Part shown: piece by piece, positions 305 to 37,933 of the stretch
How the letters are laid out: each line of letters opens with the position of its first letter
Position numbering within the stretch: the stretch's first letter is position 1
Virus record (IMG/VR): IMGVR_UViG_3300045988_053041
Coordinates: 1 to 37,933 of that record
Length of the DNA stretch: 37,933 bases
Direction: 5' to 3' (one strand)
Origin: a virus
Made by a program: the position numbers and the translations under genes
The notes under the pieces: generated by a model
What the model was told of the DNA's origin: nothing
Database searches by the model: none
What the model saw: the letters and a program-made list of their open reading frames with translations, nothing else

Positions 305-2005
305 TTAGCCCGCCTTCGCGGTCACGCTGCCGGAGCCGACCGCAACCGCGCGGCCGTTGCCGTCGACCTCAACCACGGTAATGGTCTGGCCGGTCGTGCC
401 GTCGACGGTCTTATTCGCGGGCAGGTCTGTCCAGAGCTTATCAAGCGTCTCGCCGTTTGCGACTGCGATCGCCTGCCCGGCAGTCTGGTACTTGAGCTTG
501 CCGGAGCCGTTGCCCGCGACGGTCACGACGCTCTTGCCGTTGGCAGAGCCCGCAGCGGTGGTAACAATCAGCGTGCCGATGGCGGAGTTTGCAAGGTCCT
601 TGCCGAAGGTCGTTGTCTTGGTGGGCTCGACGTTGCCATAGTTTACAAGGACAAACGCCTCGCCGATGGCGGGCTTGCCGTCGCGGCGCTGGAGGCCCTT
701 GAAGCAGGTCTGGTTCTGAAGCCAGCGCACGTTGGTGTTGGAGTCGATGACCGTGCCCTCGCGCTCGACCGAACGGTACAGGCTAAGGAAGCCGCCCGCG
801 ATCTCGTTGTCCGGCATGACTTCCCACTCGACGATCTGACCGCCGACGACCGGCATAATGTCGCCAACGCCAGGGACCATCGCCGCAGCGGAATTGTAAG
901 CCAGCGCGCGGGACTTGATGTCCATGTGTGTCTTGCGGTTCATCGTCCAGATAACCGTGCCGTTGGAGTAGTCGGGCTTTGCAACAGCCAGTGCCGCAAC
1001 AAGCGCCTGGAAGAACTCCGTACTTGTCTTTGCGGCAAGATCAAGTTTCAGAATATGGCTGGTATGTAGGTCGGTGAATTCGCCCTGCTGCGCGCCCCAC
1101 CATGCGGGCTTCGTCGTTGCAGCCAGGCGCGTGATAATGCCGACCGGCATTTTTTCGCCCGTACCGAACCAGATAGACTTGTCGATTGCCTTGGCAAGGG
1201 AGGATGCAAGCGCCTGAAGGATGCTCGTCGCGAGCTGAAGGTCGCTGTCGTCCATCAAAACGGCGTTAGGAACGGCCATATAGCCGCCGACCATGTAGCC
1301 GTCCATGGTGAGCTGCCAGAAGTTGATGTCGAGTTCGTTGAGCGCGTCGGTCATTTCCGTCCAGATGGCTTCCGGCGCAACGCCTGCGACGTTCTGACGG
1401 GTCGTGCCGCGGAAGGTCGTCGTAAAGCAGTAGCGCAGGAACTTCGATTCCTGATACGTCAGGTCCCGCAAAATCGGCAGGAAGCCGTCCGGAATACCCA
1501 GCTCGCCGCCGGTGACGCTGCGCTGCTGGGCGCGTGCCTCGCGGACATTCTGAAGGAAAGTGCGGACCTGCTCGGACTGCATGAGCGCGTCGCGCTCGGA
1601 GTAGGTGAGGCCGAACCAACGGCGCTCGGTGGGATTGCTCATAGGTACAAAGCTCCTTTCGTGGTGATCGTTGTTTCTGGTGTCAGAGTTGGACACCGCG
1701 GGTGCTGCCGGGGGCGGGGTCTGCTCGGCTTCCAGCCGGGCAATTTCCGCGCTGCGGGTGTCGATCTCGCCCTGGATACGGGCAATCTCGGCGGCGTTCG
1801 CGCTGCGCTCCTGCTCAAAGGTATCCACAGCCGAGGATACAGCGTTGCGCTCCTCGTCGGTGCTCGTCTCAGTGATCTCGCCGAGCGCCTGGCGAAGCTG
1901 CTCTTCTCTCGCGGCAAAGCCGTCTCTCGTCTGCTCCAGCGGTCTCAGCTGCGCACGAAGCGCGGTGATCTCGCTGTTCAGGACTAAAACTCTAAGTGCT
2001 GCCAT
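305..2005 (-). CDS. Major capsid protein, HK97 family, with N-terminal coiled-coil (delta/scaffold-like) region and C-terminal Ig-like extension
   Basis: Track ORF 305..2047. I place the start at ATG 2005 (MAALRVLVLN...), 9 nt after AGGAGG and overlapping the protease TAA (TAATG). The order portal-protease-capsid and the HK97-like core support the call. Confidence 0.9.
   Translation of the reverse strand: MAALRVLVLNSEITALRAQLRPLEQTRDGFAAREEQLRQALGEITETSTDEERNAVSSAVDTFEQERSANAAEIARIQGEIDTRSAEIARLEAEQTPPPAAPAVSNSDTRNNDHHERSFVPMSNPTERRWFGLTYSERDALMQSEQVRTFLQNVREARAQQRSVTGGELGIPDGFLPILRDLTYQESKFLRYCFTTTFRGTTRQNVAGVAPEAIWTEMTDALNELDINFWQLTMDGYMVGGYMAVPNAVLMDDSDLQLATSILQALASSLAKAIDKSIWFGTGEKMPVGIITRLAATTKPAWWGAQQGEFTDLHTSHILKLDLAAKTSTEFFQALVAALAVAKPDYSNGTVIWTMNRKTHMDIKSRALAYNSAAAMVPGVGDIMPVVGGQIVEWEVMPDNEIAGGFLSLYRSVEREGTVIDSNTNVRWLQNQTCFKGLQRRDGKPAIGEAFVLVNYGNVEPTKTTTFGKDLANSAIGTLIVTTAAGSANGKSVVTVAGNGSGKLKYQTAGQAIAVANGETLDKLWTDLPANKTVDGTTGQTITVVEVDGNGRAVAVGSGSVTAKAG
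1680..1696 (-). repeat. 17-bp element copy 1 (plus strand GTGTCAGAGTTGGACAC), in the capsid gene linker
   Basis: Read directly. The gene strand gives GTG TCC AAC TCT GAC AC = VSNSDT. Confidence 0.9.
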
Positions 2006-2598
2006 TACGGGTTTCCTCCTAACTTCTTGTTCATTTCTGCGCGCCACGTTTCCAGGCGGCGCTTTTCGATTGCCTCAAAATCCCGCTTCCGGGCGCTGAC
2101 CGAGGTCTGCTCGTAAGCCGGGAAGGTGCAGACGCTGACCTCATACAGCGGGTCGATCTCTTCGATCTCCCAGCGGTATTTCCCATTGCCGAGGTCGCGG
2201 AAGGTCTCACTCTTGATGGCAAAGCCAAACGAGCACTGGTCGACGTCTCCGCGCTGGACTCTTGCATACAAGTTCATCGCGTCCACGTCGTCGCGGTTGA
2301 TACGGACGCTGCCCCAGAGGCCGCGCTCGTCCTGTTTGAGCGTCAGCGTGCCGGATTTCGTCCGGCCGAGAACTAAGCTCGTGTCGTGGTTGATGAGAGC
2401 TCGAACGTCGCCCGAGATCGAATTTGTGAAAGCGCCGGGCTTGATAATCTCGCTCACATCGTCCCACAGGGGATACTCCGAGTTAAAGACCGCAAAGTAG
2501 CCCTCAATGTAGAGGTCGCTCTCGGCTTCGCGCGTCTGAAACGCCTGCGGGATGCAGCGCACCTGACGCTGCTGTCTATTCTGTTCCACCGTCTCCAC
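2005..2598 (-). CDS. Prohead (HK97-family, S78-like) maturation protease
   Basis: Translation ...DLYIEGYFAVFNSEY...ALINHDTSLVLGRT...GDVDQCSFGF... is typical of HK97 prohead proteases. The gene lies between portal and capsid. The start may be GTG 2598 or GTG 2589. Confidence 0.88.
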   Translation of the reverse strand: METVEQNRQQRQVRCIPQAFQTREAESDLYIEGYFAVFNSEYPLWDDVSEIIKPGAFTNSISGDVRALINHDTSLVLGRTKSGTLTLKQDERGLWGSVRINRDDVDAMNLYARVQRGDVDQCSFGFAIKSETFRDLGNGKYRWEIEEIDPLYEVSVCTFPAYEQTSVSARKRDFEAIEKRRLETWRAEMNKKLGGNP

Positions 2599-3769: not shown

Positions 3770-4414
3770 GTGGCATCACCTCCAAACAGCGACAGCTGCG
3801 CTGTGTATCGTTCAAAACGGTCTTCTTCCGCGGCAAAATAGTCTGCGTCCAGCTCGCACCCCACGAAATCAAGCCCCGCGTCATATGCCGCAATCCGACT
3901 TGAGCCGCTACCAAGGTGCGTATCAAGGATTCTGTCGCCCGGCTTTGCGTATCTGGCAAAAATCCAAGCATAGAGGGCGACAGGTTTCTGCGTTGGGTGG
4001 ATCGTCCATTCGCCGTTGCGCGCACCTCCGGCCGCACCGTTCCACGGGATGTCGGCAATCAAAGTTTTTCGGTCAAAGGATGTCCAGCACATTTCCGCGC
4101 TGGCAAAAGTCAAGCATTCCGGGACATGTTTGTCCCATATCACCCATGACCGCGTCAGCGGGAGCTGGAAGTAATTACCCCCCCCAGATGCATTGATTCT
4201 TGCTTACGCGGAAGAGTTCCTCAAAGTATGCTGGGGGCGGGACAGCCGCATCCCACGTTTTCTTTTGCCGCCGTGGGTTCTTTGCGTTAGCCCGTCGTCC
4301 GGCGTTGCAGTTGATGTTAATCCCGTAAGGTGGGTCGACAACGGCGAGGTCAAATGCCTTGTCAGAGAGCGTGCGCATGTACTCCATGCAGTCCATGTTG
4401 TATGCGACGTTCAC
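3766..4414 (-). pseudogene. Beta-class (DPPY ... TQKP ... DxxxGSGS) DNA N6-adenine/N4-cytosine methyltransferase split by a frameshift in a G8 tract
   Basis: Track ORFs 4175..4414 (…VVDPPYGI…NQCIWGG*) and 3766..4143 (…IWDKHV…HPTQKPVALY…DTHLGSGSS…) are the two halves. Removing one G from the run gives the continuous IWGGNYFQLPLTRSWVIWDKH. Confidence 0.85.
4178..4185. repeat. C8/G8 homopolymer at the methyltransferase frameshift point
   Basis: gtaattaCCCCCCCCagatg. The premature TAA (4175-4177) follows immediately on the minus strand. Confidence 0.95.
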
Positions 4415-6534
4415 GCCTTTGCCTCCTCCCGTGTTTCATACCAGCCTGCGCCCTTGGCGCTGGCGGTCAGGTCCTCCAGATATGCGCACGCGGCAAAGAC
4501 CGAACAGTCAAAAACATCGATGCGCAGGTTTGGAGCTATTTTTTCGTACATCACCATATCGTCGGCCTTTTCAATGCCGGCAACGTTTTGCACGCAGTAC
4601 TCATAGGGCTCTGCGTGCAGGTAATAGAGCGTGCCCTGCTTCGCGCTCTTTTCCAGGTACCGGAAGCCCTCGGACTTGAGCGTAAAGCGCTGAATCTGCG
4701 CCTTGATGGGGAAGCGCTCTTTCTGCATCTCCACAAAATACTCGCGGCAGAACTTCGGGTCGTGCCCGACGCGGCGGATTTTGAAGCCCTCGGCGCGGCG
4801 TTTTTTGAACCAGCGCACAACGTCGGAGTGGTTTGTCACCTTGTCGTTCGTCATGTCGAGCCAGCCGTCTTCCATCCAGCCAAAGAGCGGTATCTGGTCT
4901 TGCGTCGCTTTGACCACGGCGGCCGGCCGCGGGAACCAGCAGTGCGGGATGATGATGTCCACGCCCTTGTAGTGCCCAAACAGGCAGCAGGCCGTGAGGT
5001 CGTGCATCTTGGAAAGATCCGCGCCGCCGTACCAGCGGATGGGGAGCTTCGCGAGCTCCTGGAGCGTCCAGTTGTACTTCTCGTCCGACCGCCGGAACTC
5101 CTGGATGTCAAACCAGGCTTTGACGGCGTTCGTCGTGACGTTGAGGCTCTTGTTGAGATATTCCGGCCGGAGCATCGGGTTCTCGGCCGCGATGGCCGCG
5201 TCGTTGATCATGTCCTGCGGCCGGATGGAGTAGCCCCAGCCGGGGCTTGCGGCCTTGAGGACCGCCGGGTCATGGAGATCCACATCGCCGTTTTCCATCG
5301 TCGGCGCGGAGCACAAAAAGCAAAAGATCGTGTCGGCGTAGTCACCTGTGACCGTTCCGCGCAGAATTTTCCGGCAGAGTTCCAGATGCCCAAGCAAGAA
5401 GCCGCGCGCGTTGGGGCCGTTGGATGAAATGATAATGACAAGCTTATTTGTGTACGCCTTTGTCGCGTCCTTGAGGATCTGGTACTGCTGCGGGCTCTTA
5501 TAGGTGTGCGCTTCGTCGGCGATGACGATGTTGCAGTTAAAAGAGTCCTGCTTGTCGGGGTTGGCTGCCAGGGCGTTGATGGAGATCATGCCGTCGCCGA
5601 CATCGCCGGAGATCGACCGCTCCATGTTGTTGTCGATGATCCGCAGGCCCGTCTCCGGCTCATCCTTGACGGTCACGCCCAAGCGCGTGCAGTTGTACTT
5701 CAAAAAGTCAAAGCCCTCGAGTGCCTGCTTTAGCGCGCCGCCGACCTCGTACACCTTCGAGCCGGACGCTCGCTCATAAAGTGCCAGGGCAAAGGCCAGC
5801 GCGGCCGCAAACGTCGTCTTGACGTTTTTTCGCGGGATGAAGTCCACAGCTTCCTTGAAGCGCCGGATCTTCGTGCCGGGAAGGTAGAACCCCATGATGT
5901 TGTAGACAATGAACTTGTGGTACGGCAGGAGCAGGAACGGTGTGCCGCGCAGGGGCGTCGCGTCCAGGAACTCGCCCTGCTGGTGGCAGATCATCGTCTC
6001 GATGATGGCGATGATCTCGTTCGCGGGCTCCGTCCGGAATTCCCACTTGCCGGTGTCCAAGTCTGACACGTACCGTTTGCAGGCAAGCACCGCGTCCTCG
6101 CAGAGGCCGTTTTCTCCGGAGAGCGTCGCTTCGACAAAGCTGTCGACCTCGCGCTGGTACTGCGCGGCGTGCTCTTCGGCGTGGCTCTTGGACTCGGAGA
6201 GCAGCTGCTCAAGTTTGCTCGCGCCGCCCATCGGGACGCTCTTGGCGCGCGCCTTGTTAAGCCCCGTCGGCGTGAGGCCGAGCTGGTTGCGCAGGCCCTG
6301 CACCGTCGCGCGAAGATCCTCGACCGCTGTCCAGTACGGGCTCTTGGCTGTGTACTCCGCGCCGGTCTTGTTGACCATCGTACAGATGCGCTGCCCGCCC
6401 TGCTTCTTCCACTCTTTCTCGGCGCGGGAGAGCTCGCGCTCCGTCTTGGCCAGCTGCTTGATCGTCGGCTCGAATATTGCGTTGTAGGTGCCGACAAGCT
6501 GCATGTCCTGCCGGATCATGTCCTCTCGCGCCAT
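4411..6534 (-). CDS. terL: Terminase: small-subunit-like (P27/Terminase_4-like) N-terminal ~140 aa fused in frame to a large subunit (Terminase_1-like)
   Basis: Track ORF 4411..6627. The likely start is ATG 6534 (MAREDMIRQD...). The N-terminus ...NKTGAEYTAKSPYWTAVEDL...QLGLTPTGLNKARAK resembles small terminases. The remaining ~565 aa is TerL-like, and no stop separates the two parts. Confidence 0.85.
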   Translation of the reverse strand: MAREDMIRQDMQLVGTYNAIFEPTIKQLAKTERELSRAEKEWKKQGGQRICTMVNKTGAEYTAKSPYWTAVEDLRATVQGLRNQLGLTPTGLNKARAKSVPMGGASKLEQLLSESKSHAEEHAAQYQREVDSFVEATLSGENGLCEDAVLACKRYVSDLDTGKWEFRTEPANEIIAIIETMICHQQGEFLDATPLRGTPFLLLPYHKFIVYNIMGFYLPGTKIRRFKEAVDFIPRKNVKTTFAAALAFALALYERASGSKVYEVGGALKQALEGFDFLKYNCTRLGVTVKDEPETGLRIIDNNMERSISGDVGDGMISINALAANPDKQDSFNCNIVIADEAHTYKSPQQYQILKDATKAYTNKLVIIISSNGPNARGFLLGHLELCRKILRGTVTGDYADTIFCFLCSAPTMENGDVDLHDPAVLKAASPGWGYSIRPQDMINDAAIAAENPMLRPEYLNKSLNVTTNAVKAWFDIQEFRRSDEKYNWTLQELAKLPIRWYGGADLSKMHDLTACCLFGHYKGVDIIIPHCWFPRPAAVVKATQDQIPLFGWMEDGWLDMTNDKVTNHSDVVRWFKKRRAEGFKIRRVGHDPKFCREYFVEMQKERFPIKAQIQRFTLKSEGFRYLEKSAKQGTLYYLHAEPYEYCVQNVAGIEKADDMVMYEKIAPNLRIDVFDCSVFAACAYLEDLTASAKGAGWYETREEAKA
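6053..6069 (+). repeat. 17-bp element copy 2 (GTGTCCAAGTCTGACAC), in the terminase gene
   Basis: Read directly. The gene strand gives VSDLDT. Confidence 0.95.
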
Positions 6535-6827
6535 GCTTAGATTTCCTTTCTCTGAGACTCTGCCAGACGCAGCGCGCGAACGCCGCGTCCAGTCAAAAAA
6601 GGAGGATGATGAGATGACTCCGGGCACCGGCGGTGGTTCCCAATGCCGCCGAGCTGAACTGCGCCCGGCAGAGCCTCAGATGGTTTGCGTCTTTGCGCGC
6701 CCGCGTCGTTTGCGCCCGCGCCGCGCGATTCGAGATTTTCGCGCGTGTGCGCGCCTGGCGGTCTCGTCTGAACCCCCTCCCGCGGTTTTCCCGCCGTCGG
6801 AAAGAGGGCCCCACTCCGGTGCTCCGA
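6535..6827. other. Non-coding gap between HNH and terminase; candidate cos / terminase-recognition region
   Basis: ~290 bp with no credible ORF; the only translations are Arg/Ala/Pro-rich. It contains short direct repeats such as TTTGCGCGCCCGCG / TTTGCGCCCGCGCC. The HNH-cos-terminase layout is typical of HK97-like cos phages. Confidence 0.45.
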
Positions 6828-7510: not shown

Positions 7511-8227
7511 TTACGCCTTTCGCTTTTCCCTGTTTCGCCAGGGAAGCTTGTAGTCCACATAATAATAGCTGCCGAACTTGTTTTCCTTCGCCTCGGGCTC
7601 TACGTCAAAGGCCTCTTTCGGTGGCACAGGCCGGTAGTTGTCCGGGACTTTTTCGACAGTGATGCGTGGTTTTTCAAGGTTCCGTGATGGCGTCCACAAT
7701 CGGTCGCCCACATATTCCCGTCCGTGCTGCATCGGCTCTTTGGTCAGATACTTTGCCAAGCCAACAAAGCCGAGCTTCCCGACGGGCTCCCAGTTGATAT
7801 CGCCGTCCGGCCAGAGCTTGCGGAGCACTTCCGTCTCGCCGGGATAATGGTTGAGGATGATGTGGTGATGCAAACGCTTGTCTCCGTGCCGGCCTTCGGT
7901 GGTGTACAGATATTTGTAAGGCCGACCGAAGGCTTTGCGGCTCTCGCGCAGCTGACGGTTAAAAAGCTTCACCCGCTTCTGCGCGGCGAAGGTGTTCGGC
8001 GGCTTGTGCGCCTCGTCGTAGGTGAGCGTGAGCAGCCAGTCCGAATACGTAAAGTTTGCGGCGATCAGAAACGCAAGCCGCTCATAGGCGTGGCGAATGT
8101 TGAGCTTTTCGCGGATGGTTGTCTGCGGCAGGCTCTTCGGCGCTCTGCCTCGTCGCTTGGCCAGCGGCTCGGTGAACACGCACTCGCGGCATAAGACGGA
8201 TGTTTTCATGGATACAAGATAGCTCAC
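7511..8227 (-). CDS. HUH-superfamily rolling-circle replication initiator (Rep)
   Basis: Three RCR motifs are visible: WLLTLTYDE (motif 1), RLHHHIILN (HUH) and GLAKYLTKE (catalytic Tyr). GTG start at 8227 after AGGAGG. Confidence 0.75.
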   Translation of the reverse strand: MSYLVSMKTSVLCRECVFTEPLAKRRGRAPKSLPQTTIREKLNIRHAYERLAFLIAANFTYSDWLLTLTYDEAHKPPNTFAAQKRVKLFNRQLRESRKAFGRPYKYLYTTEGRHGDKRLHHHIILNHYPGETEVLRKLWPDGDINWEPVGKLGFVGLAKYLTKEPMQHGREYVGDRLWTPSRNLEKPRITVEKVPDNYRPVPPKEAFDVEPEAKENKFGSYYYVDYKLPWRNREKRKA

Positions 8228-8343: not shown

Positions 8344-8682
8344 TCATTTTTTCTTGCGCCGGGTGGATACCTTTTTGTAATTAAATTCCCGGATGTGCGG
8401 GTTGCGCTCGCGGAACGGGACAAAATGCGCGCCGCAGGCCTTGCGGAGGATCGCGTCCAGCCGTTCTTGCAGCCAGTCGGCTTCCGGGCCGCAGCCGTAT
8501 GCGCCGTCAAATTCCGTGTCCAACTCGGACACGCGGCACGCCAGCCGGTAAAGCCGCTCTTCGCCGAAGCCCTCCTGCGCGAGCGCTGCGAGAAACATGT
8601 CGGAGACTTTCTGCATACCTGCCTCCACGCCGATCTCCATCGCCGCCCGCCCAACCGCGTCCAGCTGGTCAACGTATTTCAA
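8344..8682 (-). CDS. Hypothetical early protein (contains 17-bp element copy 3)
   Basis: C-terminal part of track ORF 8344..8835. Possible starts are TTG 8682 after AAGGAGGGGG, or ATG 8640. No recognisable family. Confidence 0.55.
   Translation of the reverse strand: MKYVDQLDAVGRAAMEIGVEAGMQKVSDMFLAALAQEGFGEERLYRLACRVSELDTEFDGAYGCGPEADWLQERLDAILRKACGAHFVPFRERNPHIREFNYKKVSTRRKKK
8516..8532 (+). repeat. 17-bp element copy 3 (variant GTGTCCAACTCGGACAC), in an early hypothetical gene
   Basis: Read directly. The gene strand gives VSELDT. Confidence 0.85.
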
Positions 8683-12545: not shown

Positions 12546-12759
12546 GGATGCGTACCTCCTTTTTCAGCTCAAAAAAATCAGAAAACTTTGCGCCGAACAG
12601 ATCGCAGATCTTTCTTGCCGTGCTGATGGTGCACGGCTCGCCCCGCAGCGCGCGGGATACGGTCGGCGCGGACAGGCCGGTCTTCCGGGCGATGGCGACA
12701 AAATCGCCGTATCGGTAAAGCCCATAGACCGCCTCGCGCCGGGCGACAATTTTACTCAT
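12538..12759 (-). CDS. Small helix-turn-helix DNA-binding protein
   Basis: ...IARKTGLSAPTVSRALRGE... is an HTH. ATG follows AGGAGG. Confidence 0.7.
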   Translation of the reverse strand: MSKIVARREAVYGLYRYGDFVAIARKTGLSAPTVSRALRGEPCTISTARKICDLFGAKFSDFFELKKEVRIHE

Positions 12760-13090
12760 CAGCTACCTCCTCGCATTCTTCCTGCCGGACGATCGTCCGG
12801 TGCTTTTCATCGAGCGTCACAATGTAAGTCGCGCGGATGCCGTCGCAGCATTGCTGCTTTTGCGCCTTGTAGACCTTCCCGGGCTTGAGCTGGAATTCCG
12901 GGAAGACCGGCAGCGGCTTTGCCACGCGGATGCATACCGGGACGGCCTCCTTCTTGCGGTACTGCGCCGGGATGTAATTTACATTCTTCGCCCGCCGGTA
13001 GCACTCCCGGCAGCAGTAGACCTGATCGGTCCGGTACGTCGTGAAGAGGTTGCCGCAGCCACGGCATTGCCGGAACAGCTGCCTGCTCAT
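12752..13090 (-). CDS. Zinc-ribbon protein
   Basis: MSRQLFRQCRGCGNLF...YCCRECYRRA.... ATGA overlap with the parB stop. Confidence 0.65.
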   Translation of the reverse strand: MSRQLFRQCRGCGNLFTTYRTDQVYCCRECYRRAKNVNYIPAQYRKKEAVPVCIRVAKPLPVFPEFQLKPGKVYKAQKQQCCDGIRATYIVTLDEKHRTIVRQEECEEVADE

Positions 13091-14598
13091 ATCGAGCCCT
13101 CCTCTTCCGGCGGCAAATGCAGCCAGCGCAGGATATTCGGGCCGTTGTCCGTCAAAAGTTCTGCGCTATATAGCTCCAGCTCCCCGCAGTGCGCGGTATC
13201 AACGTCATAGATCCGCATGCCCTCGGTTTCAAGCAGCAACAGGACCGGCCCGTCCGGGAAATCGCGGTCTGTGCGCCAGGCCATCCGAAAAGCGCCTTCC
13301 GGCAGCGCCGCCGTGTCAGACTTGGACACCGGCTGAAGCTCGTCCGTCAGCCCCAGCAGATAGTCTGCCGAGCAGTGTAGCTCTGCACAAAGTGTCGGGA
13401 TGGCGCGCGAACTTGGAAGTAAAAACTCGTTGTTCCAAAGGCTCCTTGCGCCAAATTCGCCTTCTGCAAAATTCCGGATATCTGCGGCGGTTTTCATGCC
13501 GACGGTGTCGTTGATTATAAGGATCGTGCCGTCCGCCAGACCTGCCGCATCAATGGCTCTCACAATTCGTTGCGCATATTGCTGGGCTGCCGCATGGAAG
13601 ACACGCTGTTTATTCTCCTTTTCGGTTTCCTCTTTCTGCTTTTCGGCGGCGTTTTTGTCCGTGCGGTACTGCTTGGCCTTGGAGCACATCTGATCGCAGA
13701 CGTCATAGCAGCCACGCGCTTTCGCGCCATACTTGCAGTCCATGCAGCACATTTCGCCCTTGCACTGCGGCGTCCACGAGCCGCACGTGGCGTCATGCCG
13801 AAGCGTTGCGTCGTCTCTGGAATTCGGGCACCACTTACCATCCGGGCAGCGGAAGCGATTGCTCGGGTGCCAGGTCGCGCCCTTCTCGGCGAGTTCCCGC
13901 ACCTGCACAATTCCGGCAGATGTGGGAAATTCTTTCGTCCGGGCAAATGCATCGTATAGCCGCTGTTGCAAGGTAAAATCACACCGGGCAAGTTCCAAAG
14001 CCGTCGCATCGGGAAGCTTCCCAGCCGCCCACTGTGCCTTAAAATCGCTGGTGAGGTTCTCCTCGATCATGTGCAGGTTCGCAAGCTTCGTCTTGCTCAC
14101 ATTGCACGCCTCGGCCACATGGTCGCGCATCCGGCCGGGGAACTCCACGCCTTGCTCCTTAAGGTCATAAAGCAGACGCTCCACGCGCTGCGCCGCCTGG
14201 CTGATCTCCGCGCTCGTGAGCACTCTGGCCGTGGAGTTTGCCATGATGAGCTCCAGTTCTTCCATGGCCGCGCTTTTGGGGCTCCGGACGAAAACCGGCA
14301 CTTTGCGAAGATCCTCGCGCCCTTCTGCGACCAAAGCCCGAACCGCAGCCGTGCGCCGGTGGCCGGAAATAAGGCGGTACTTGCCGTCCTCCGTGCGCGT
14401 GACCGTCGGCGGGTCCATAATGCCGGAGAGCGCAATGGAGTTTTTGAGCTCTTCGAGTTTGTCCTCGTCAACGGCGTAAAAGTTCGCGTCGTTGCTGACT
14501 AAATCGTCAATGTCGACCTGCGTGAGCTCGCGTCCGGTGTCAGACTTGGACACCGCCTGCACCTGCTTAGCAAAAATGCTTGAAACGTCAAATGCCAT
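13087..14598 (-). CDS. parB: Atypical ParB/Spo0J-family protein: ParB N-domain, HTH, Cys-rich insert, XRE-like helix and DUF551-like C-terminus
   Basis: ...YRLISGHRRTAAVRAL... is the ParB GxxRxxA box. ATG 14598 overlaps the parA TGA (TGATG). The gene carries two copies of the 17-bp element, each encoding VSKSDT. Confidence 0.8.
   Translation of the reverse strand: MAFDVSSIFAKQVQAVSKSDTGRELTQVDIDDLVSNDANFYAVDEDKLEELKNSIALSGIMDPPTVTRTEDGKYRLISGHRRTAAVRALVAEGREDLRKVPVFVRSPKSAAMEELELIMANSTARVLTSAEISQAAQRVERLLYDLKEQGVEFPGRMRDHVAEACNVSKTKLANLHMIEENLTSDFKAQWAAGKLPDATALELARCDFTLQQRLYDAFARTKEFPTSAGIVQVRELAEKGATWHPSNRFRCPDGKWCPNSRDDATLRHDATCGSWTPQCKGEMCCMDCKYGAKARGCYDVCDQMCSKAKQYRTDKNAAEKQKEETEKENKQRVFHAAAQQYAQRIVRAIDAAGLADGTILIINDTVGMKTAADIRNFAEGEFGARSLWNNEFLLPSSRAIPTLCAELHCSADYLLGLTDELQPVSKSDTAALPEGAFRMAWRTDRDFPDGPVLLLLETEGMRIYDVDTAHCGELELYSAELLTDNGPNILRWLHLPPEEEGSI
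13313..13329 (-). repeat. 17-bp element copy 4 (GTGTCAGACTTGGACAC, reverse complement of the main form), in the parB 3' third
   Basis: Read directly. The gene strand gives VSKSDT. Confidence 0.95.
14537..14553 (-). repeat. 17-bp element copy 5 (GTGTCAGACTTGGACAC), in parB codons ~16-21
   Basis: Read directly. The gene strand gives VSKSDT. Confidence 0.95.
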
Positions 14599-15395
14599 CA
14601 CCAAAGCCCCCCCCTCAGAATCTCGTCCATGGTCACGGGCGGCTGGATGTACTCCTGCACGAATGCCCGGTAATCATATCCGGCTGCCGAGTACGGCGAG
14701 TAGACCGTGATCGGCTTGCGCTCGAAGGTCATTTCGTCAATTTTGTCGGTGCGGCGGATATGCTGCTCGAAGACCGGCAGGATGCCGCACTCCCGGAGGC
14801 TGCCCTCCGCCTCAAGTACGACCGGCGTATTGCGCCACATGGTGATAAGCGCCCCGGCGATCTTGAGGCTCGGGTTGATCTTGTGCATGTTGTCGATCTG
14901 GCGCGAGACATTGGCCAAACCGCGCAGGCTGAACGCGTCGAGCTTGATGGGGATAATGACCTCGTCGGAGGCCAGAAGCGCCGCGGCGCTGGCGGCGTTG
15001 AATGCCGGCGGGCAGTCGAAAATAACGTAGTCATACGCATCGTCCTCGCGGATGGCGTTGCAGAAGCCTTTGAGGCAGCTGCCGTTCACGCGATCTCCGA
15101 TGGACGATAGATCTAAGTCCATCAGCGCATCGGACGCCGGGAGCATGTCCACGCCGTAGACCGTCTCAGAGATATTGTCGGCGTAATATGACTCGCATGT
15201 TCCAAGCATTACGTCTGCCACGCCGTAGAGCCCCGGCTCGGTGAGCCCGTAGAACTCCGTCGCGTTGCACTGGCTGTCGCAGTCGGCGAGCAGCACGCGC
15301 TTTTTGTGATCAGCGGCCAGAATATAGGCCATATTCACGGCGGTCACGGTCTTCCCGACGCCGCCTTTGAGATTCAAAATCGAAATTGCCTTCAT
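14598..15395 (-). CDS. parA: ParA/Soj-type partition ATPase
   Basis: MKAISILNLKGGVGKTVTAVN... shows the deviant Walker A motif. ATG 15395 lies 8 nt after AAGGAG. This is the inner part of track ORF 14598..15527. Confidence 0.88.
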   Translation of the reverse strand: MKAISILNLKGGVGKTVTAVNMAYILAADHKKRVLLADCDSQCNATEFYGLTEPGLYGVADVMLGTCESYYADNISETVYGVDMLPASDALMDLDLSSIGDRVNGSCLKGFCNAIREDDAYDYVIFDCPPAFNAASAAALLASDEVIIPIKLDAFSLRGLANVSRQIDNMHKINPSLKIAGALITMWRNTPVVLEAEGSLRECGILPVFEQHIRRTDKIDEMTFERKPITVYSPYSAAGYDYRAFVQEYIQPPVTMDEILRGGLW

Positions 15396-15408: not shown

Positions 15409-16731
15409 TCAGTCCGGCAGCTTGAACTGCTCGGGCACATCGTCGTTACATGGCTTCCAGCGCTTGTCCGGCTCCGGGCGCGGCGCCTGGGAAGCTGATT
15501 TTTTGAATGTCTGCGTCTGGCCGTCAAAGGCCAGCATCAGCGCGATATTTGCCTCGCCCTCTTTGTTCTTTGCGATGTTGAGGATGCGGCGGCTCCGGCT
15601 GTTGTCCGGCTCTTCGCGATAGAGCAGCATGACCACGTCCGCGTCCTGCTCGATCTGGCCGGAGGAGCGGAGCGAGGCCAGCGTCGGGGGCGGGATCTTG
15701 CCGCCCTTGGTCTTCTCGGGGCGCGAGAGCTGCGAGAGCGCGATGACGGGCGTGCCGGTCTGCCTGCCGAACTGCTGCAAGTCGCTCGAAATTTTCGAGA
15801 CGACCTGAAACTGGTCGGCTGCGCCGCGGCCTGTAATATCGCTCTTGATCTTTTGCAGGTAGTCGATGAAGATCACGTCGTAGCGCTTGGACAGGCTGTG
15901 CGCCCGGATGTCCTGGACGGTCATGCCGCTGGCCTCGACGAGCTCCAGCTTTAGCCCACCCAGCCGCTCGGAGAGCACTGCGACGGTTTCCCAGTCGGTC
16001 GCGTTCATGGCGTTGAGTTTCAGCTTCGGCAGGCCAATTTGTGCGGTCATGGCGATGATGCGGTCGAAGAGCTTGTCGCAGTCGGTCTCGTAGCTGTAAA
16101 AGCCGACGCGCATCGTCTTGGCCATCCGCACGGCGAGCGTCAGAGCGAGGCTCGTCTTGCCGTCCGACGGGTAGCCGCCGAGGACGACCATATCGCCCCG
16201 GGAGGCATAGACGTTTTCGTTGATATCCTCCATGCCAAAGTCCAGATAGACGGGCTTTGCGTCCGGGTCGTGCCGCTGATAAAACTGCGTCAGTGCGGCG
16301 GACATGTCCACCACGCGCAGCCCCGGCCGCTCGACCAGCTGGGCGTTTGCCTCATTGACCAGCCCGCGCAGATCGTCCTCGTCGTCCGTGTCCTGCATCC
16401 GCTGGGCAATACCTTGCAGACGGCTGACTCTGGCCTGCTGCTTTAAAAGCTGCATGTAGCTCTTGACGTTGGCCGCCGTCGGCGTGACCTGGATCAGCTC
16501 CATGAGAAGCTTGTCATACTTGCCGCCGAGCCGCGCGTTGATCGTCACCGCGTCGCAGGGCTCGCCGCTCGAAAACTGCGCCCGGAAGGCGAGGAACACT
16601 TGCCGGTAAGCGCCGGTCGTGAAGTCATCCGGGACGATCTCCTGAAGCACAAGGCCGACGGTTTTCTCGTCAATGAGCATCGCGCCGAGGACGGCCTGCT
16701 GGGCTTCCAACAGCTTTTTTTCGTCCGTCAC
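15409..16731 (-). CDS. dnaB: Replicative DNA helicase (DnaB family)
   Basis: 440 aa with a DnaB N-domain (…QQAVLGAMLIDE…) and a RecA-like core (…VLGGYPSDGKTSLAL…). GTG start overlaps the upstream TGA. Confidence 0.9.
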   Translation of the reverse strand: MTDEKKLLEAQQAVLGAMLIDEKTVGLVLQEIVPDDFTTGAYRQVFLAFRAQFSSGEPCDAVTINARLGGKYDKLLMELIQVTPTAANVKSYMQLLKQQARVSRLQGIAQRMQDTDDEDDLRGLVNEANAQLVERPGLRVVDMSAALTQFYQRHDPDAKPVYLDFGMEDINENVYASRGDMVVLGGYPSDGKTSLALTLAVRMAKTMRVGFYSYETDCDKLFDRIIAMTAQIGLPKLKLNAMNATDWETVAVLSERLGGLKLELVEASGMTVQDIRAHSLSKRYDVIFIDYLQKIKSDITGRGAADQFQVVSKISSDLQQFGRQTGTPVIALSQLSRPEKTKGGKIPPPTLASLRSSGQIEQDADVVMLLYREEPDNSRSRRILNIAKNKEGEANIALMLAFDGQTQTFKKSASQAPRPEPDKRWKPCNDDVPEQFKLPD

Positions 16732-17480
16732 AGGAACCTCACACCTCCCGTATCAACCTCGCGCTTCTGCGCCTTCGGCAGCTCGTCGTCCTTCAGCGGG
16801 AAGACGCTCAGCCACTGCCGCTCCGTTGCGAGGTCAAGCAGCGCGGCCATGTTTGCCGAGTCACCGTCGGACAGGCTCATGAGCTTGTTCCAAAGCAGCG
16901 TGGCAGCCTGCTTGGACTTGACCGGCTTTTTGATCTCGACCCGCATTTTCAAGAACCGCCCCATCGCCTCGGTGGCAGACGGACCGTAAAGCGCGCACTT
17001 GGCAAGGAGGGAGGCGGCGACGTCGCCAGACGGCGCACTTTCTTTTTCCTTTTTCTTTTTATTATCTTTTTTATATCCATCCTTATATAACGACCGGGAA
17101 GTTTGTCCCGGTACCCCGGGATTTTTGTCCCGGTACGTACCGGGACGTTCGTCCCGGTACCCCTCATCCTCGTCGAGGATGACCGGCGCGGCGACCACGG
17201 GGGAAATGTAGCGGATGGAGCCGCCCGTCTTGCGGTTCGGCACGACCCGGACTTGGATGTGTCCGTCATGCTGCAAGGCCGCGAGCCAGCGCCGGATCAC
17301 GTCCTCCGAGCAGTGCATGGCGGCGGCCAGCTGGGCGTTACTCGGCCAGCAATAGCCCTCGCGCCGCATGAGAGACGAGAGCACGCCGTACAAAATCTTT
17401 GCATTGGCTTGCAGCTGCATATCGTCTAAGACGGTTGCGGGGATCACGGACCAAAACGCCCGAAAATCTTGATTTTCCAA
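16728..17480 (-). CDS. Replisome organiser / replication initiator (winged-HTH N-domain, DnaD-like C-terminal region)
   Basis: ...IPATVLDDMQLQANAKILYGVLSSLMRREGYCWPSNAQLAAAMHCSEDVIRRWL... Start placed at TTG 17480, 5 nt after GGAGGTG. The gene contains the iteron/AT-rich block. Confidence 0.75.
   Translation of the reverse strand: MENQDFRAFWSVIPATVLDDMQLQANAKILYGVLSSLMRREGYCWPSNAQLAAAMHCSEDVIRRWLAALQHDGHIQVRVVPNRKTGGSIRYISPVVAAPVILDEDEGYRDERPGTYRDKNPGVPGQTSRSLYKDGYKKDNKKKKEKESAPSGDVAASLLAKCALYGPSATEAMGRFLKMRVEIKKPVKSKQAATLLWNKLMSLSDGDSANMAALLDLATERQWLSVFPLKDDELPKAQKREVDTGGVRFL
17041..17165. promoter_or_regulatory. Candidate replication origin: AT-rich tract plus GTCCCGGTAC iterons inside the organiser gene
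   Basis: AT-rich tract at 17041-17090. GTCCCGGTAC occurs at 17105-17114, 17127-17136 and 17151-17160. An inverted copy GTACCGGGAC at 17137-17146 forms a 20-bp palindrome with the second repeat. Confidence 0.65.
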
Positions 17481-17499
17481 AAAATCACCTCCCCCACAC

Positions 17500-17528
17500 T
17501 TGCAATTGGCAGCAAACCGTGATAAACT
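17500..17528 (+). promoter_or_regulatory. Candidate plus-strand promoter (TTGCAA-17 nt-TAAACT)
   Basis: -35 TTGCAA at 17500-17505 and -10 TAAACT at 17523-17528, with a 17-nt spacer. Confidence 0.35.
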
Positions 17529-17534
17529 AAAGAT

Positions 17535-17600
17535 GCCTTCATGGTGTTGCAAAACACCGTTCCCGTGCAGTCGTTCGCAGCGGCTGTGCGGGATTTTTTT
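17535..17600 (+). ncRNA. Candidate ~65-nt antisense small RNA
   Basis: Downstream of the candidate promoter lies hairpin GGTGTT-GCAA-AACACC (17543-17558). It is followed by CCCGTGCAG-(13 nt)-CTGTGCGGG plus ATTTTTTT (17562-17600), a plus-strand terminator in a region with no plus-strand gene. Confidence 0.35.
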
Positions 17601-21258: not shown

Positions 21259-21275
21259 GTGTCCAAGTCTGACAC
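21259..21275 (+). repeat. 17-bp element copy 6 (GTGTCCAAGTCTGACAC), intergenic and abutting the integrase SD
   Basis: TAAcgGTGTCCAAGTCTGACACGGGAGGtttgtATG. Confidence 0.95.
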
Positions 21276-21286
21276 GGGAGGTTTGT

Positions 21287-22309
21287 ATGGCGATCCCCAA
21301 GTACTACGTGCGCCCGGATGGGCTGCATGAGACGATCATCAAAATAAACGGCAAGCGCAAGGCCTTCCGGGGGAAGACTGACCGCGAGGTCTGGGAGAAG
21401 GTCAAAAGCTATCGCGCCGACGTGGCCGCTGGGAAGACCGAGACATTTGAGAACGTAGCGCACGCCTGGTGGAACGAGATCGAGCCGACGCTCGCCGCAA
21501 ACACACACCGGGGCTATAACCCGGCCTATGAGCGCGCCGTGGCCGAGTTCGGGGAAATGGACGTGGCCTCGATCACAGCCAGAGATATTGAGCGCTATAT
21601 CAACCAGTTTGCGAAGACCTACGCCAAAAAGACCGTCGTCACACAGCGGCAGATCATCCGCCAGATCTTAAACAAAGCCCAGCGCGAGGGTTATATCGCC
21701 TACAATCCGGCGGAGGCCGTCCTGCTCCCCAAAAACCTGCCGCAGAAAAAGCGCCGCGCGCCAAGCCCTGATCAAATAAAAAAAATAAAAGCCGGCCTTT
21801 CGGACGACTTTGGGCTCTTTGCCTTTTTGATCTACTATACTGGGTGTCGCCGCGGCGAGGTGGAGGGGCTCAAGTACGAGGACATCGACCGCAAGGCAAA
21901 GCGCATCCGTATCCAGCGCAGCGTCTACAATGTCAGCACCAAGCCGGAGATCAAGGGGCCAAAGACCGAGGCCGGTATCCGCTCCGTGCCGCTGCTGGAC
22001 GCGTTGGCCGCTGCCCTGCCAGATAAAAAACACGGTTTTATATTTTCTGACGACGGCGGCAAAACCCCGACGCCGGACTGGAGGATCACCCGGCAGTACG
22101 AGGACTACCAGAAGCGCACCGGCGTCACCGTCACGCCGCATGAGATCCGACACGGCTACGCGACGGCCCTGCACGAGGCGGGCGTGGATTATAAAACTGC
22201 CCAGCAGCTGCTTGGCCACGCCCAGCTCTCGACCACGATGGACATTTACACGGATATTTTGGACAATACCATCGACGATGCAGCCGCAAAAATGGGCAAG
22301 TCCTTTTGA
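21287..22309 (+). CDS. int: Tyrosine site-specific integrase
   Basis: 340 aa with a SAM-like N-domain and a catalytic region ...TGCRRGEV...HEIRHGYAT...LLGHAQLSTTMDIYTD.... GGGAGG SD. Confidence 0.92.
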   Translation: MAIPKYYVRPDGLHETIIKINGKRKAFRGKTDREVWEKVKSYRADVAAGKTETFENVAHAWWNEIEPTLAANTHRGYNPAYERAVAEFGEMDVASITARDIERYINQFAKTYAKKTVVTQRQIIRQILNKAQREGYIAYNPAEAVLLPKNLPQKKRRAPSPDQIKKIKAGLSDDFGLFAFLIYYTGCRRGEVEGLKYEDIDRKAKRIRIQRSVYNVSTKPEIKGPKTEAGIRSVPLLDALAAALPDKKHGFIFSDDGGKTPTPDWRITRQYEDYQKRTGVTVTPHEIRHGYATALHEAGVDYKTAQQLLGHAQLSTTMDIYTDILDNTIDDAAAKMGKSF

Positions 22310-22317
22310 CCCTGATT

Positions 22318-22338
22318 TACTGTGTTCATTCTGTGTTC
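22318..22338 (+). repeat. Arm-type repeat pair TACTGTGTTCA tt CTGTGTTC
   Basis: The same TACTGTGTTCA recurs at 22571-22581, preceded by CTGTGTTTA (22562-22570). Confidence 0.7.
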
Positions 22339-22462
22339 GCAGGCGTGTATTTTGGCGCTAGGATATGCTAGGCTTTGCCATGCTGGTGCAAGCCAGAAAG
22401 CAAAACATTTTTGATATAAAGTTCCGTGTTCGGCTGATAAAATCAGAAAATATACAAACAAA

Positions 22463-22498: not shown

Positions 22499-22521
22499 TG
22501 GCGGAGTGGGAGGGATTCGAA
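22499..22521 (-). other. tRNA 3'-end fragment (T-loop, T-stem 3' arm, acceptor 3' arm, CCA); candidate attP core
   Basis: Minus strand reads TTCGAAT-CCCTC-CCACTCC-G-CCA. The matching 5' T-stem (GAGGG) and the rest of a tRNA are absent. Confidence 0.65.
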
Positions 22522-22561
22522 GCATATAAATCCAAAGTAATACCAATGTAAAATCAGATTG

Positions 22562-22581
22562 CTGTGTTTATACTGTGTTCA
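22562..22581 (+). repeat. Arm-type repeat pair CTGTGTTTA TACTGTGTTCA
   Basis: Direct repeat of 22318-22338, on the other side of the tRNA-like core. Confidence 0.7.
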
Positions 22582-25115: not shown

Positions 25116-25487
25116 ATGACGGCAGATGAGTACATAGCCAAACTGGAGAGCCGCTGGCCAAAAAACATCCCGCTGGGGATGCTGCGCGACGCAGTGATCG
25201 TCGTCTCCAGCCAGAAGTTGCAGGAGATTAAAGCCGAGCTGCATGGGACGGATCAATCGCATAACCTTTACGCTGGGCGCCTTTGTGAGTACAAAATAGG
25301 GACTGTCGACATGGCAAGCTTTGAGGCGCTCGTCCCGAGCTTTGACGCAATCCATTTCGTGGAGGGCGGGGACTACCTTGTCCATCAAGGCAAACTATCG
25401 CAAGTCACACGTGTCAACCGTAGCTCAACCGGGCGTGAGGCCTTTGTTGATATCACGCCAGTCGCTGACATTACATACCTTGGATAA
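25116..25487 (+). CDS. Moron gene C, hypothetical 123-aa protein
   Basis: AGGAGG-6nt-ATG (MTADEYIAKLESRWPKNIPLGML...). Inner part of track ORF 25080..25487. Confidence 0.7.
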   Translation: MTADEYIAKLESRWPKNIPLGMLRDAVIVVSSQKLQEIKAELHGTDQSHNLYAGRLCEYKIGTVDMASFEALVPSFDAIHFVEGGDYLVHQGKLSQVTRVNRSSTGREAFVDITPVADITYLG

Positions 25488-25492
25488 AAACA

Positions 25493-25524
25493 CCCGGTGT
25501 CCAACTTGGACACCGGGTATTTTA
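25493..25524. terminator. Bidirectional rho-independent terminator built from 17-bp element copy 7
   Basis: CCCGGTGTCCAA-C-TTGGACACCGGG. The plus strand continues TATTTTATAT and the minus strand TGTTTTTATCC. It lies between convergent genes. Confidence 0.8.
25497..25513. repeat. 17-bp element copy 7 (perfect palindrome GTGTCCAACTTGGACAC), core of the bidirectional terminator
   Basis: Read directly. Confidence 0.9.
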
Positions 25525-25770
25525 TATCATGTTGAGCCTTTGCGCTGTCTGCCGCGCCCTCGTATAAATCCCGGGCAGCCGCCTCGAAAGCGTGCTTCGC
25601 TCCATGCACAGCTCGACGGCCACGTCGATCTGGGGCGCTTTGCCCACGATGTAGCGGCGCACGATCTCGGCGTCCTGCCTGCTGTATCCGGCCTCGCGTA
25701 TGACGCGCTCCCACTCGCTTTGCAGCAAACCGGATAAGTCGTCTGGGATATGGACTCTTGCGCTTGCCAA
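25522..25770 (-). CDS. Small sigma-70 region-4-like HTH protein
   Basis: 82 aa, ...QDAEIVRRYIVGKAPQIDVAVELCMERSTLSRRL.... TTG start at 25770, 7 nt after AGGAGG. Confidence 0.6.
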   Translation of the reverse strand: MASARVHIPDDLSGLLQSEWERVIREAGYSRQDAEIVRRYIVGKAPQIDVAVELCMERSTLSRRLPGIYTRARQTAQRLNMI

Positions 25771-37876: not shown

Positions 37877-37933
37877 CCCGTGCCGCCTCCCATCTTCTGC
37901 TGCGCAAGCTTGTCGTTGAGCATCCGTCGCAGA
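37873..37933 (-). CDS. 3' end of the gp6-like connector gene (same gene as 1..288)
   Basis: Reading from 288 through base 1 (= 37879) continues GGA TGA, ending at 37873-37875. Confidence 0.75.
   Translation of the reverse strand, partial: LRRMLNDKLAQQKMGGGTG
37879..37933. repeat. Second copy of the 55-bp terminal overlap
   Basis: Identical to bases 1-55. Confidence 0.95.

Follow-up and report, generated by a model that had tools for sequence, protein, structure and literature searches.

A putative ParABS module with a multi-domain ParB and eight dispersed palindromes in an integrase-bearing temperate siphovirus

The IMG/VR record IMGVR_UViG_3300045988_053041 (37,933 nt; the whole stretch is referred to below as the window) is the genome of a temperate siphovirus, with genes for capsid, portal, fused TerS-TerL terminase, tail proteins and a tyrosine integrase, in which a gene for a Soj-type ParA is coupled to one for a divergent ParB-family protein of 503 residues. 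Both belong to one tightly coupled operon on the minus strand, rep-dnaB-parA-parB-orf112-HTH26, in which the initiator gene overlaps dnaB. The assembly closes as a circle, bases 1-55 being identical to 37879-37933, in agreement with a preliminary description of this DNA made from its sequence. The two genes, and the parts into which the ParB protein can be divided by homology and by an AlphaFold2 (AF2) model, are as follows.

14598-15395, minus strand: parA, encoding a 265-residue Soj-type ATPase with a deviant Walker A motif (KGGVGKT); from the open reading frame (ORF), Pfam, PHROG and solved relatives
13087-14598, minus strand: parB, encoding the 503-residue divergent ParB-family protein; from the ORF, PHROG 27290 and AF2
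14227-14529, minus strand: ParB residues 24-124, N-terminal nucleoside triphosphatase (NTPase) fold of the CTPase type; from Pfam, Foldseek and the columns of 64 homologues
13885-14214, minus strand: ParB residues ~129-238, helical DNA-binding domain with a ParB-type helix-turn-helix (HTH); from Foldseek, 213-231 columns with 6t1f and 7nfu
13684-13866, minus strand: ParB residues 245-305, Cys-rich module; from the 64-homologue alignment and AF2
13543-13683, minus strand: ParB residues 306-352, a 47-residue K/E-rich single helix; from AF2 secondary structure
13324-13536, minus strand: ParB residues 355-425, a small α/β domain ending CSADYLLGLTDE, resembling a degenerate XRE/Cro-C1-like fold
13108-13281, minus strand: ParB residues about 440-497, a β-rich tail (W441...P446...W492-x-x-x-P496) that appears DUF551-like

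The parA gene starts 13 nt past the dnaB stop codon behind a GGAG ribosome-binding site, and its product, which begins MKAISILNLKGGVGKT, lacks an N-terminal HTH. The protein matches AAA_31 (E-value 2.6e-39) and CbiA (1.2e-18) in Pfam and PHROG family 164 ‘ParA-like partition protein’ (2e-55); its closest relatives of solved structure are the Soj proteins of T. thermophilus (1wcv; 1.7e-25) and H. pylori. At 78.5 bits it lies below the NCBIfam ParA_partition cut-off of 180 bits. The TGA of parA shares its A with the ATG of the co-oriented parB (TGATG; cTTTGGTGATGGCA), and at its other end parB shares an ATGA with the next ORF, so that the coordinates bear out the earlier claim of a translationally coupled parA-parB pair directly downstream of dnaB.

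The segments singled out beforehand in the ParB protein, namely an N-domain containing LISGHRRTAAVRAL, a Cys-rich stretch, ADYLLGLTDE and ILRWLHLPPEE, are all in the sequence. The best PHROG match is family 27290 ‘unknown function’ (4.5e-92 across residues 6-432), followed by ParB-like families. Pfam recognizes ParB_N (PF02195) alone, at residues 24-118, with an E-value of 7.7e-10 and 39.1 bits against a cut-off of 26.3. The AF2 model was built on 64 homologues with 30-62% identity and has a predicted local distance difference test score (pLDDT) of 89.7 and a predicted template-modelling score (pTM) of 0.73. When its ~215 N-terminal residues were compared with the PDB by Foldseek, the matches were ParB-CTPγS (7bnr; 1.4e-9), ParB-CDP (6sdk), Noc (7nfu), the C. 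crescentus ParB-parS complex (6t1f) and KorB (8qa9), with template-modelling scores (TMt) of 0.78 for 6t1f, 0.75 for Noc and 0.66 for KorB. A phmmer match against the PDB extends to residue 220; no Pfam HTH model is matched, though the structure aligns with the ParB HTH. The AlphaFold and Foldseek check proposed in the preliminary description therefore recovered both the ParB NTPase fold and the HTH, and on the strength of the model we regard these two domains, in residues 1-240, as genuine. Over the same N-domain and HTH the protein is 30-33% identical to ParBs at clostridial plasmid partition loci in PLSDB.

Residues N39-F40-Y41, G79-H80-R81-R82 and N121 are invariant in the 64 homologues and R125 is nearly so; the motif GERR thus reads GHRR in this protein. 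Nucleotide binding is plausible from these sequence features, with CTP, ATP and GTP as the candidates. Each of the three is bound by some members of the ParB/Srx fold according to a 2025 survey (PMC12704722).

The ~260 residues beyond a canonical ParB comprise the Cys-rich module, the long helix, the XRE-like domain and the DUF551-like tail, and in the model residues 240-503 form five parts: Cys-rich region, helix, α/β domain, disordered linker and β-rich tail, the last modeled at residues 450-494. The canonical C-terminal dimerization domain of ParB was not found, nor did residues 240-503 give any Pfam match among 30 family members. Foldseek with the C-terminal half gave best E-values of 0.28 in the PDB and 0.077 in BFVD, revealing themes (XRE, DUF551) without an assignment. 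In the Cys-rich module, C257, C279, C284, C285, C288 and C301 are invariant, C251 is present in 60 and C305 in 44 of the 64 homologues, and distant members share the pattern CC-x2-C-x5-C-x3-C-P. The module is modeled with a pLDDT of 77-93 and scant secondary structure and has no match in Pfam, the PDB or BFVD; from its cysteine pattern it is probably a metal site for Zn or Fe-S. The helix that follows, predicted with a pLDDT above 92, is a candidate coiled-coil dimerizer in place of the canonical C-terminal domain.

For the last two domains the preliminary description had named an XRE-like helix and a DUF551-like tail, and both calls are weakly supported, as resemblances in structure and profile rather than as Pfam assignments. 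In the XRE-like region a ParB-family profile run against the PDB found the N-domain of the P22 C2 repressor (E-value 0.01) and the Xre-family regulator of ICEBs1 (0.1), and the best BFVD match was an ‘HTH XRE-family like protein’ (probability 0.95, E-value 0.08); no Pfam HTH was matched in residues 355-425 of the 30 members scanned. The tail matched BFVD DUF551 proteins with probabilities of 0.99, 0.98 and 0.87, at TMt values of at most 0.57 and E-values of 0.15-0.4, and an hhalign comparison with the neighbouring DUF551 protein aligned the last 22 columns only (a W-x-PLP motif; probability 43%). Pfam DUF551 (PF04448) was not reached by the tail, including in the 30-member scan. Among the best BFVD matches of the C-terminal half as a whole, XRE-family HTH proteins alternate with DUF551 proteins, and support for these two identities is weak but consistent.

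Two candidate classifications were set aside. Membership of canonical ParB/Spo0J (TIGR00180; PF02195 + PF17762 + PF23552) was rejected on the sub-cut-off TIGR00180 score, the missing C-terminal dimerization domain and the missing LGRGL peptide. A ParB-nuclease, methylase or defence protein was rejected likewise: no enzymatic Pfam domain was found, PADLOC returned nothing, and PHROG nuclease families were matched weakly and via the shared N-domain only.

The window contains eight copies of an odd-centred 17-bp palindrome, given here by position on the circle.

Site 1, 1680-1696: in the capsid gene (305-2047, minus strand); reads AVSNSDT
Site 2, 6053-6069: within the linker that joins the TerS-like and TerL parts of the terminase (gene at 4411-6627, minus strand); reads VSDLDT; position kept in relatives L002 and L003
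Site 3, 8516-8532: in the small ORF that precedes the REP_ORF2-G2P gene; reads VSELDT; position kept in L002 and L003
Site 4, 13313-13329: in parB, where the linker from the XRE-like domain to the tail is encoded; reads V424-S-K-S-D-T429
Site 5, 14537-14553 (GTGTCAGACTTGGACAC): in the 5' end of parB; reads V16-S-K-S-D-T21; a hallmark of the family
Site 6, 21259-21275: intergenic; its end lies 11 nt upstream of the int ATG, adjoining the GGGAGG ribosome-binding site of int
Site 7, 25497-25513: within CCCGGTGTCCAAcTTGGACACCGGG, a 25-bp palindrome without mismatches that has a T-run after it
Site 8, 32069-32085: in a 657-residue tail gene (31726-33699, minus strand); reads VSDLDT

The pattern GTGTC-N7-GACAC occurs exactly eight times, against a chance expectation of 0.01, so the eight sites noticed at the outset are real. 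Searching with GGTGTCCAAGTCTGACAC and up to three mismatches returned the same eight places, and the half-sites GTGTCCAA and GTGTCAGA do not occur outside them. The sites are spaced more evenly than at random (P=0.012): the largest gap on the circle is 7.5 kb, where random placement gives 12.9 kb on average. All six of the six coding sites are read in the same frame, as V-S-x-x-D-T, and lie within linkers; the two in parB overlap the lowest-confidence segments of the AF2 model (residues 16-19, pLDDT below 50, and 427-433). Their placement in linkers and in segments of low pLDDT points to selection on the DNA rather than on the peptide. One alternative frame of a coding site would contain a TGA stop in one orientation, and linkers may accept no peptide other than the polar V-S-x-x-D-T. 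Around site 7 (25485-25530) an A-run precedes the palindrome and TATTTTAT follows it; by its sequence this site could double as a bidirectional intrinsic terminator.

Relatives of the ParB protein were sought exhaustively among 1.84 billion representatives of clusters formed at 50% identity, which yielded 3125 proteins at an E-value of 1e-3 or better and 412 clusters below 1e-30. Most are 470-620 residues long and match residues 1 to ~430, with a variable tail. A 10-sequence alignment was also used to scan a GTDB set in which each species is represented by a single genome; relatives are encoded in 118 stretches, of which 80 were kept. The hosts of these 118 are nearly all Oscillospiraceae (Oscillibacter, Flavonifractor, Pseudoflavonifractor, Intestinimonas, Colidextribacter and Faecousia), and the family is found in hundreds of human-gut contigs as well. 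Many relatives lie in contigs of 100-370 kb or in the complete chromosome of O. valericigenes, and are therefore integrated prophages. In about 74 of the 80 loci the gene immediately preceding that of the ParB homologue encodes ParA, and in about 65 of them DnaB is encoded upstream of parA; a related tyrosine integrase is detectable in 22 of the fetched loci as well as in the window. A few homologues (L066, L069 and L084) have no detectable ParA upstream and come from bins labelled Bacteroides or Bacteroidales, or unnamed, those of L066 and L069 not being labelled Oscillospiraceae; they may be mis-binned phage contigs or a ParA-less subfamily.

The palindrome accompanies the gene through this family. 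Of 84 homologues, 76 have a copy near the start of parB, within ~25 codons, a second site follows 1.1-1.6 kb into parB at 17 of 86 loci, and 12 of the 23 loci with a detectable integrase have a site 0-160 nt upstream of int. Over 1.36 Mb, 309 sites were counted where ~30 were expected. The in-gene palindrome differs by lineage (GTGTCCAAnTTGGACAC, GTGCCCAAnTTGGGCAC, GTGCCCGAnTCGGGCAC), and the variant found in a genome's own parB is repeated at 3-8 places within 10 kb on either side, as GTGCCCGAnTCGGGCAC is in L042, L071, L077 and L085. The arms co-vary at mirrored positions, with an odds ratio of 5.6 and P=0.009, a value that carries no correction for phylogeny. Four sites hold syntenic positions in the window, L002 and L003: the one preceding int, the one at the 5' end of parB and those within the small ORF and the terminase gene. 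Hybrid sites of the form GTGCCC...GGACAC occur at 14 loci and suggest that the T/C position of the half-site is not strictly read. From these sequence patterns, the eight palindromes are very probably ParB binding sites.

The closest cultured relative is Flavonifractor phage Cormatin (ON453905), a chromosomal, inducible and virion-producing prophage of F. plautii YL31 (PMC10197239). Its ParB homologue (WAK79880.1, annotated ‘hypothetical protein’) is 42% identical across 85% of the length, without alignment after about residue 431; ParA is encoded directly upstream and DnaB further upstream. Cormatin carries four dispersed copies of the palindrome TGTGTCCAACTTGGACACA, one of them in the 5' end of parB. 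No integrase is recognizable within its published borders (L001 1-35440), and its first gene encodes a TetR-family regulator.

Two features of the window concern integration.

21287-22309, plus strand: tyrosine integrase gene, int (Pfam Phage_integrase, 2.8e-21)
22499-22521, plus strand: attP core, TGGCGGAGTGGGAGGGATTCGAA, equal to the 3' end of tRNA-Ser(GGA); from alignment with the integrated relative L002

L002 is a 50.6-kb gut contig whose ParB is 82% and integrase 98% identical to those of the window, and in which the phage adjoins FtsW and penicillin-binding protein (PBP) genes and tRNA-Ser(GGA). High identity between the two sequences continues downstream of int through TGGCGGAGTGGGAGGGATTCGAA and is followed by the tRNA in L002 and by phage DNA in the window; because the homology breaks exactly there, TGGCGGAGTGGGAGGGATTCGAA is taken as the attP core. 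The tyrosine integrase and tRNA-derived attP of the preliminary description are thus both in place. With ARAGORN the window gave no complete tRNA; what it has is the 23-nt 3' fragment at attP. Repeats of CTGTGTTY flank the core on both arms (22319-22340, 22426-22433 and 22561-22580) and are likely arm-type integrase binding sites, judging by their sequence and position.

The integrated and excised forms, which the preliminary description had suggested looking for, were sought in public assemblies by exact match of the left arm plus core. An attP junction is present in the window and in 10 public contigs (6 from IMG/VR and 4 gut contigs from ENA), and a junction of phage arm and tRNA-Ser in two contigs, L002 and L095; both forms of the phage lineage are present. 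The coexistence of an integrase with ParAB had been presented as an oddity. It is not anomalous, because the arrangement is, on the sequences compared, normal in a large Oscillospiraceae prophage clade, and temperate phages that can be either integrated or episomal have been reported before (phi80b/84b, phiC725A and P88; PMC7969092).

Upstream of parA, the operon contains two replication genes.

15409-16731, minus strand: dnaB, helicase gene (ORF and Pfam)
16728-17552, minus strand: gene for an HTH_36/RepC-like initiator (ORF and Pfam), with three putative iterons within it at 17093-17163

The repeats in the initiator gene are three direct copies of ACCGGGAnGTTyGTCCCGGTACCCC spaced 22-24 nt apart, and probably represent origin iterons. 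Similar repeat triplets were seen in Cormatin (L001 31451-31520, within the annotated replication initiation gene) and in MT835558 (L005 9482-9550). By gene content, rep-dnaB-parA-parB with its iterons forms a self-contained replicon module.

We favour, with a probability of roughly 55%, a divergent module of the ParABS type whose substrate is the phage genome in its extrachromosomal state. This reading is based on the coupling of a Soj-type ParA to a ParB with an NTPase fold and an HTH, on palindromes that track the parB lineage and on the iteron-bearing replicon module. ParB dimers would recognize the 17-bp palindrome GTGTCC(A/G)A-N-T(Y)(K)GACAC at eight positions distributed fairly evenly round the 37.9-kb circle and would probably spread from there as an NTP-gated clamp, and the Soj-type ParA would use the resulting ParB-site complexes to position and distribute extrachromosomal phage genomes; site binding, NTP-dependent spreading and the partition role are all inferred. 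In ParB itself, the Cys-rich metal module, the long helix as likely dimerizer, the XRE-like domain and the DUF551-like tail take the place of the canonical C-terminal dimerization domain. Since the element integrates and parAB lies in an early operon without a clear promoter of its own, the module would act in the non-integrated phases (between infection and integration, once excised, while replicating by the theta mode or in a carrier state) rather than in a permanent plasmid prophage. The even tiling of the sites and the conserved site at int argue for an added organizational or regulatory role, and occupancy of the site that abuts the int ribosome-binding site could also damp int expression.

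Several observations weigh against a ParABS module of this kind. Relatives in isolate genomes are chromosomal, whether in the complete O. valericigenes genome, in contigs of 172-368 kb or, for Cormatin, at 1.13 Mb of the YL31 chromosome, and no full-length family member was found on PLSDB plasmids, where matches to clostridial plasmid ParBs concern the N-domain only. The excess of attP contigs fits virion DNA and episomes equally. A divergent promoter (18738-18710) precedes the early lytic operon that holds parAB; a search for a promoter of parAB itself found no intergenic gap and one weak 9/12 match, inside dnaB, in a scan that was unconvincing, which makes expression of the two genes in a stable lysogen doubtful. 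ParB has the invariant N39-F40-Y41 where the QPR phosphate motif would be expected and Y/M where ENLQR has its Glu, which weakens the case for CTP binding. The ParA-activating LG(R/K)GL peptide is absent from the N-terminus (MAFDVSSIFAKQVQAVSKSDTGRELTQ), where the family consensus is VSxxDT(R), and the protein scores 41.6 bits on TIGR00180, whose cut-off is 58.45. Finally, the XRE-like second domain, and not the ParB HTH, could be what reads the palindrome.

A different emphasis, which has a real though minor chance of being correct, is that ParB is mainly a regulator or silencer acting on the whole genome, comparable to RK2 KorB or ICEclc BisD, and slides from its sites to activate or repress promoters of the phage, including that of int, or that it compacts or marks the genome, with ParA as an accessory in the way that IncC is to KorB. 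The sites are dispersed evenly through the genome and do not form one centromere cluster; one abuts the int ribosome-binding site, 12 of the 23 integrase-bearing loci have a site within 160 nt upstream of int, and two bracket parB in a way that could allow autoregulation. The extra XRE-like domain in ParB, the presence of KorB among the structural matches and co-expression with the early lytic genes, which would suit a timing role, point in the same direction. However, six of the eight sites are in coding regions far from plausible promoters, neither a KorA-like partner nor an operator-at-promoter pattern was identified, and the near-universal coupling to a Soj-type ParA most simply means DNA movement. 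Partition is in any case compatible with such a role: KorB, P1 ParB and N15 SopB each combine partition with regulation.

It is improbable that the element is a true phage-plasmid whose usual lysogen is a low-copy circular episome kept by rep-dnaB-parAB, with only occasional integration at tRNA-Ser. Dual-state phages are documented (PMC7969092), a plasmid-type rep with iterons, DnaB, ParA and ParB form one module, intact attP in the window and 10 public contigs compares with two integrated junctions, and at least 25 of the 120 closest ParB homologues are on contigs of 36-40 kb, about unit length. Unit-length contigs also arise, however, from virion DNA or from strain-variable flanks, while the integrase, attP and arm-type repeats are conserved, the close relatives L002 and L095 are integrated at tRNA-Ser, the more distant relatives from isolates lie in chromosomes, PLSDB plasmids carry none, and parAB is in an operon that a CI-type repressor should shut off.

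Least probable is a ParB/Srx-fold enzyme (a nuclease, kinase or anti-defence factor) with the palindromes belonging to another regulator such as one of the phage's XRE repressors: the ParB fold is widely repurposed in phages according to the 2025 survey (PMC12704722), the protein has GHRR in place of GERR and altered phosphate motifs, and the window codes for at least four separate XRE-type HTH proteins, but a full ParB-type HTH domain is present, parA is tightly coupled, and the palindrome lies inside parB in 76 of 84 homologues with variants that follow the parB lineage.

A more far-reaching form of the ParABS reading, which we consider doubtful, would make the protein a new class of phage NTP-gated clamp. 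In it, a metal- or redox-sensitive Cys module and a second, XRE-like DNA-binding domain would tie genome-wide loading at even, in-frame linker sites to the lysis-lysogeny machinery, with int controlled, as one output, from the conserved site beside its ribosome-binding site, and the module would both segregate and programme the unintegrated prophage in strictly anaerobic gut Firmicutes.

Among known systems, the chromosomal CTP clamps ParB/Spo0J and Noc have the same order of an N-terminal NTPase fold with GxxRR followed by a ParB-type HTH, and a small Soj-like ParA partner. As with Spo0J, the site is palindromic and one copy is inside the parB gene; B. subtilis spo0J also holds a copy of its binding site. 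In contrast to Spo0J and Noc, the present 17-bp site is odd-centred and unrelated to TGTTNCACGTGAAACA, the protein resides in an integrating prophage, the C-terminal dimerization domain and LG(R/K)GL are missing, QPR and ENLQR are altered, and ~260 residues are added.

The Sop system of phage N15 reportedly has sites scattered in the genome and influences late gene expression, as described by Ravin and Lane. The N15 centromere consists of four separate single palindromic sites, IR1-4 (PMC7205306), so that N15 is likewise a temperate phage with a ParB-family protein acting on several single palindromes and not on a tandem centromere. Unlike the present phage, N15 is a linear phage-plasmid of enterobacterial hosts that never integrates and has no integrase; its SopA/SopB system is of type Ia with a large, HTH-bearing ParA, and SopB lacks the Cys-rich, XRE-like and DUF551-like modules. 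KorB-IncC of RK2 resembles the present pair in joining a ParB-family clamp to a ParA, with about a dozen operators round the replicon that serve partition and global repression. KorB differs in its C-terminal architecture, belongs to a plasmid and not to a phage, and has operators at or near promoters and a KorA partner, whereas the sites here are mostly intragenic and no KorA analogue was seen.

In Cluster A mycobacteriophages parABS takes the place of the integrase, whereas in the present clade the two are conserved together and the ParB architecture is different. Actinobacteriophage parABS (PMC7157519) and the dual-state phages phi80b/84b, phiC725A and P88 (PMC7969092) are nonetheless comparable, being temperate phages that either have partition functions or switch between an integrated and an episomal prophage. 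Cormatin, finally, differs from the window phage in having four sites instead of eight, an unaligned tail region and no recognizable integrase.

Novelty lies in the ParB architecture and in how the sites are organized: in-gene, in-frame, evenly dispersed and int-adjacent. The earlier impression that this multi-domain architecture was undescribed agrees with its annotation: Pfam reports ParB_N only, PHROG 27290 is of ‘unknown function’, and the Cormatin homologue is a ‘hypothetical protein’. No description of either the architecture or the site organization was found in the literature searched or in Pfam, NCBIfam, PHROG and PADLOC annotations, and the searched text of the 2025 fold survey, which was built on Pfam domain fusions, does not mention the family (PMC12704722). 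ParB-family clamps are an active topic, with recent interest in CTP switches, KorB, BisD and the fold survey itself. If the ParABS reading is true, integrating prophages routinely bear an active segregation system, centromere-like sites can run in-frame through the linkers of capsid, terminase and tail genes and tile a whole genome, and a conserved metal-binding module is possible within a ParB. The cultured, inducible pair of F. plautii YL31 and Cormatin makes the question directly testable, and the 17-bp site with its cognate ParB is a candidate orthogonal tool for DNA labelling or segregation in anaerobic Firmicutes.

Downstream of parB, the operon continues with a small gene.

12752-13090, minus strand: orf112, encoding a 112-residue zinc-ribbon-like protein, coupled to the parB stop by ATGA and found in close relatives only

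The parA-parB-orf112 cassette (12752-15395 in the window, 9205-11841 in L002) is just 82-88% identical between the two genomes, while dnaB, int, terL and HTH26 around it are 97-100% identical. By this comparison the cassette would be either mosaic or fast-evolving, despite an unchanged 17-bp site.

Among the remaining genes, the 738-residue product of the terminase ORF (4411-6627, minus strand) has a Terminase_4 small-subunit domain at residues 41-125 upstream of the TerL ATPase and nuclease, and a TerS-TerL fusion is also called in L002 and in L003 (710 residues). The 580-residue capsid protein (305-2047, minus strand) has, after its HK97-type capsid domain, an S-layer SbsC C-terminal-like domain at residues 499-577 (E-value 5.7e-6) that may be a decoration or Ig-like appendage. 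Situated between the early region and the terminase gene is a second replication-type gene, of the REP_ORF2-G2P family (7511-8227; 1.2e-12), which is kept in L002 and L003.

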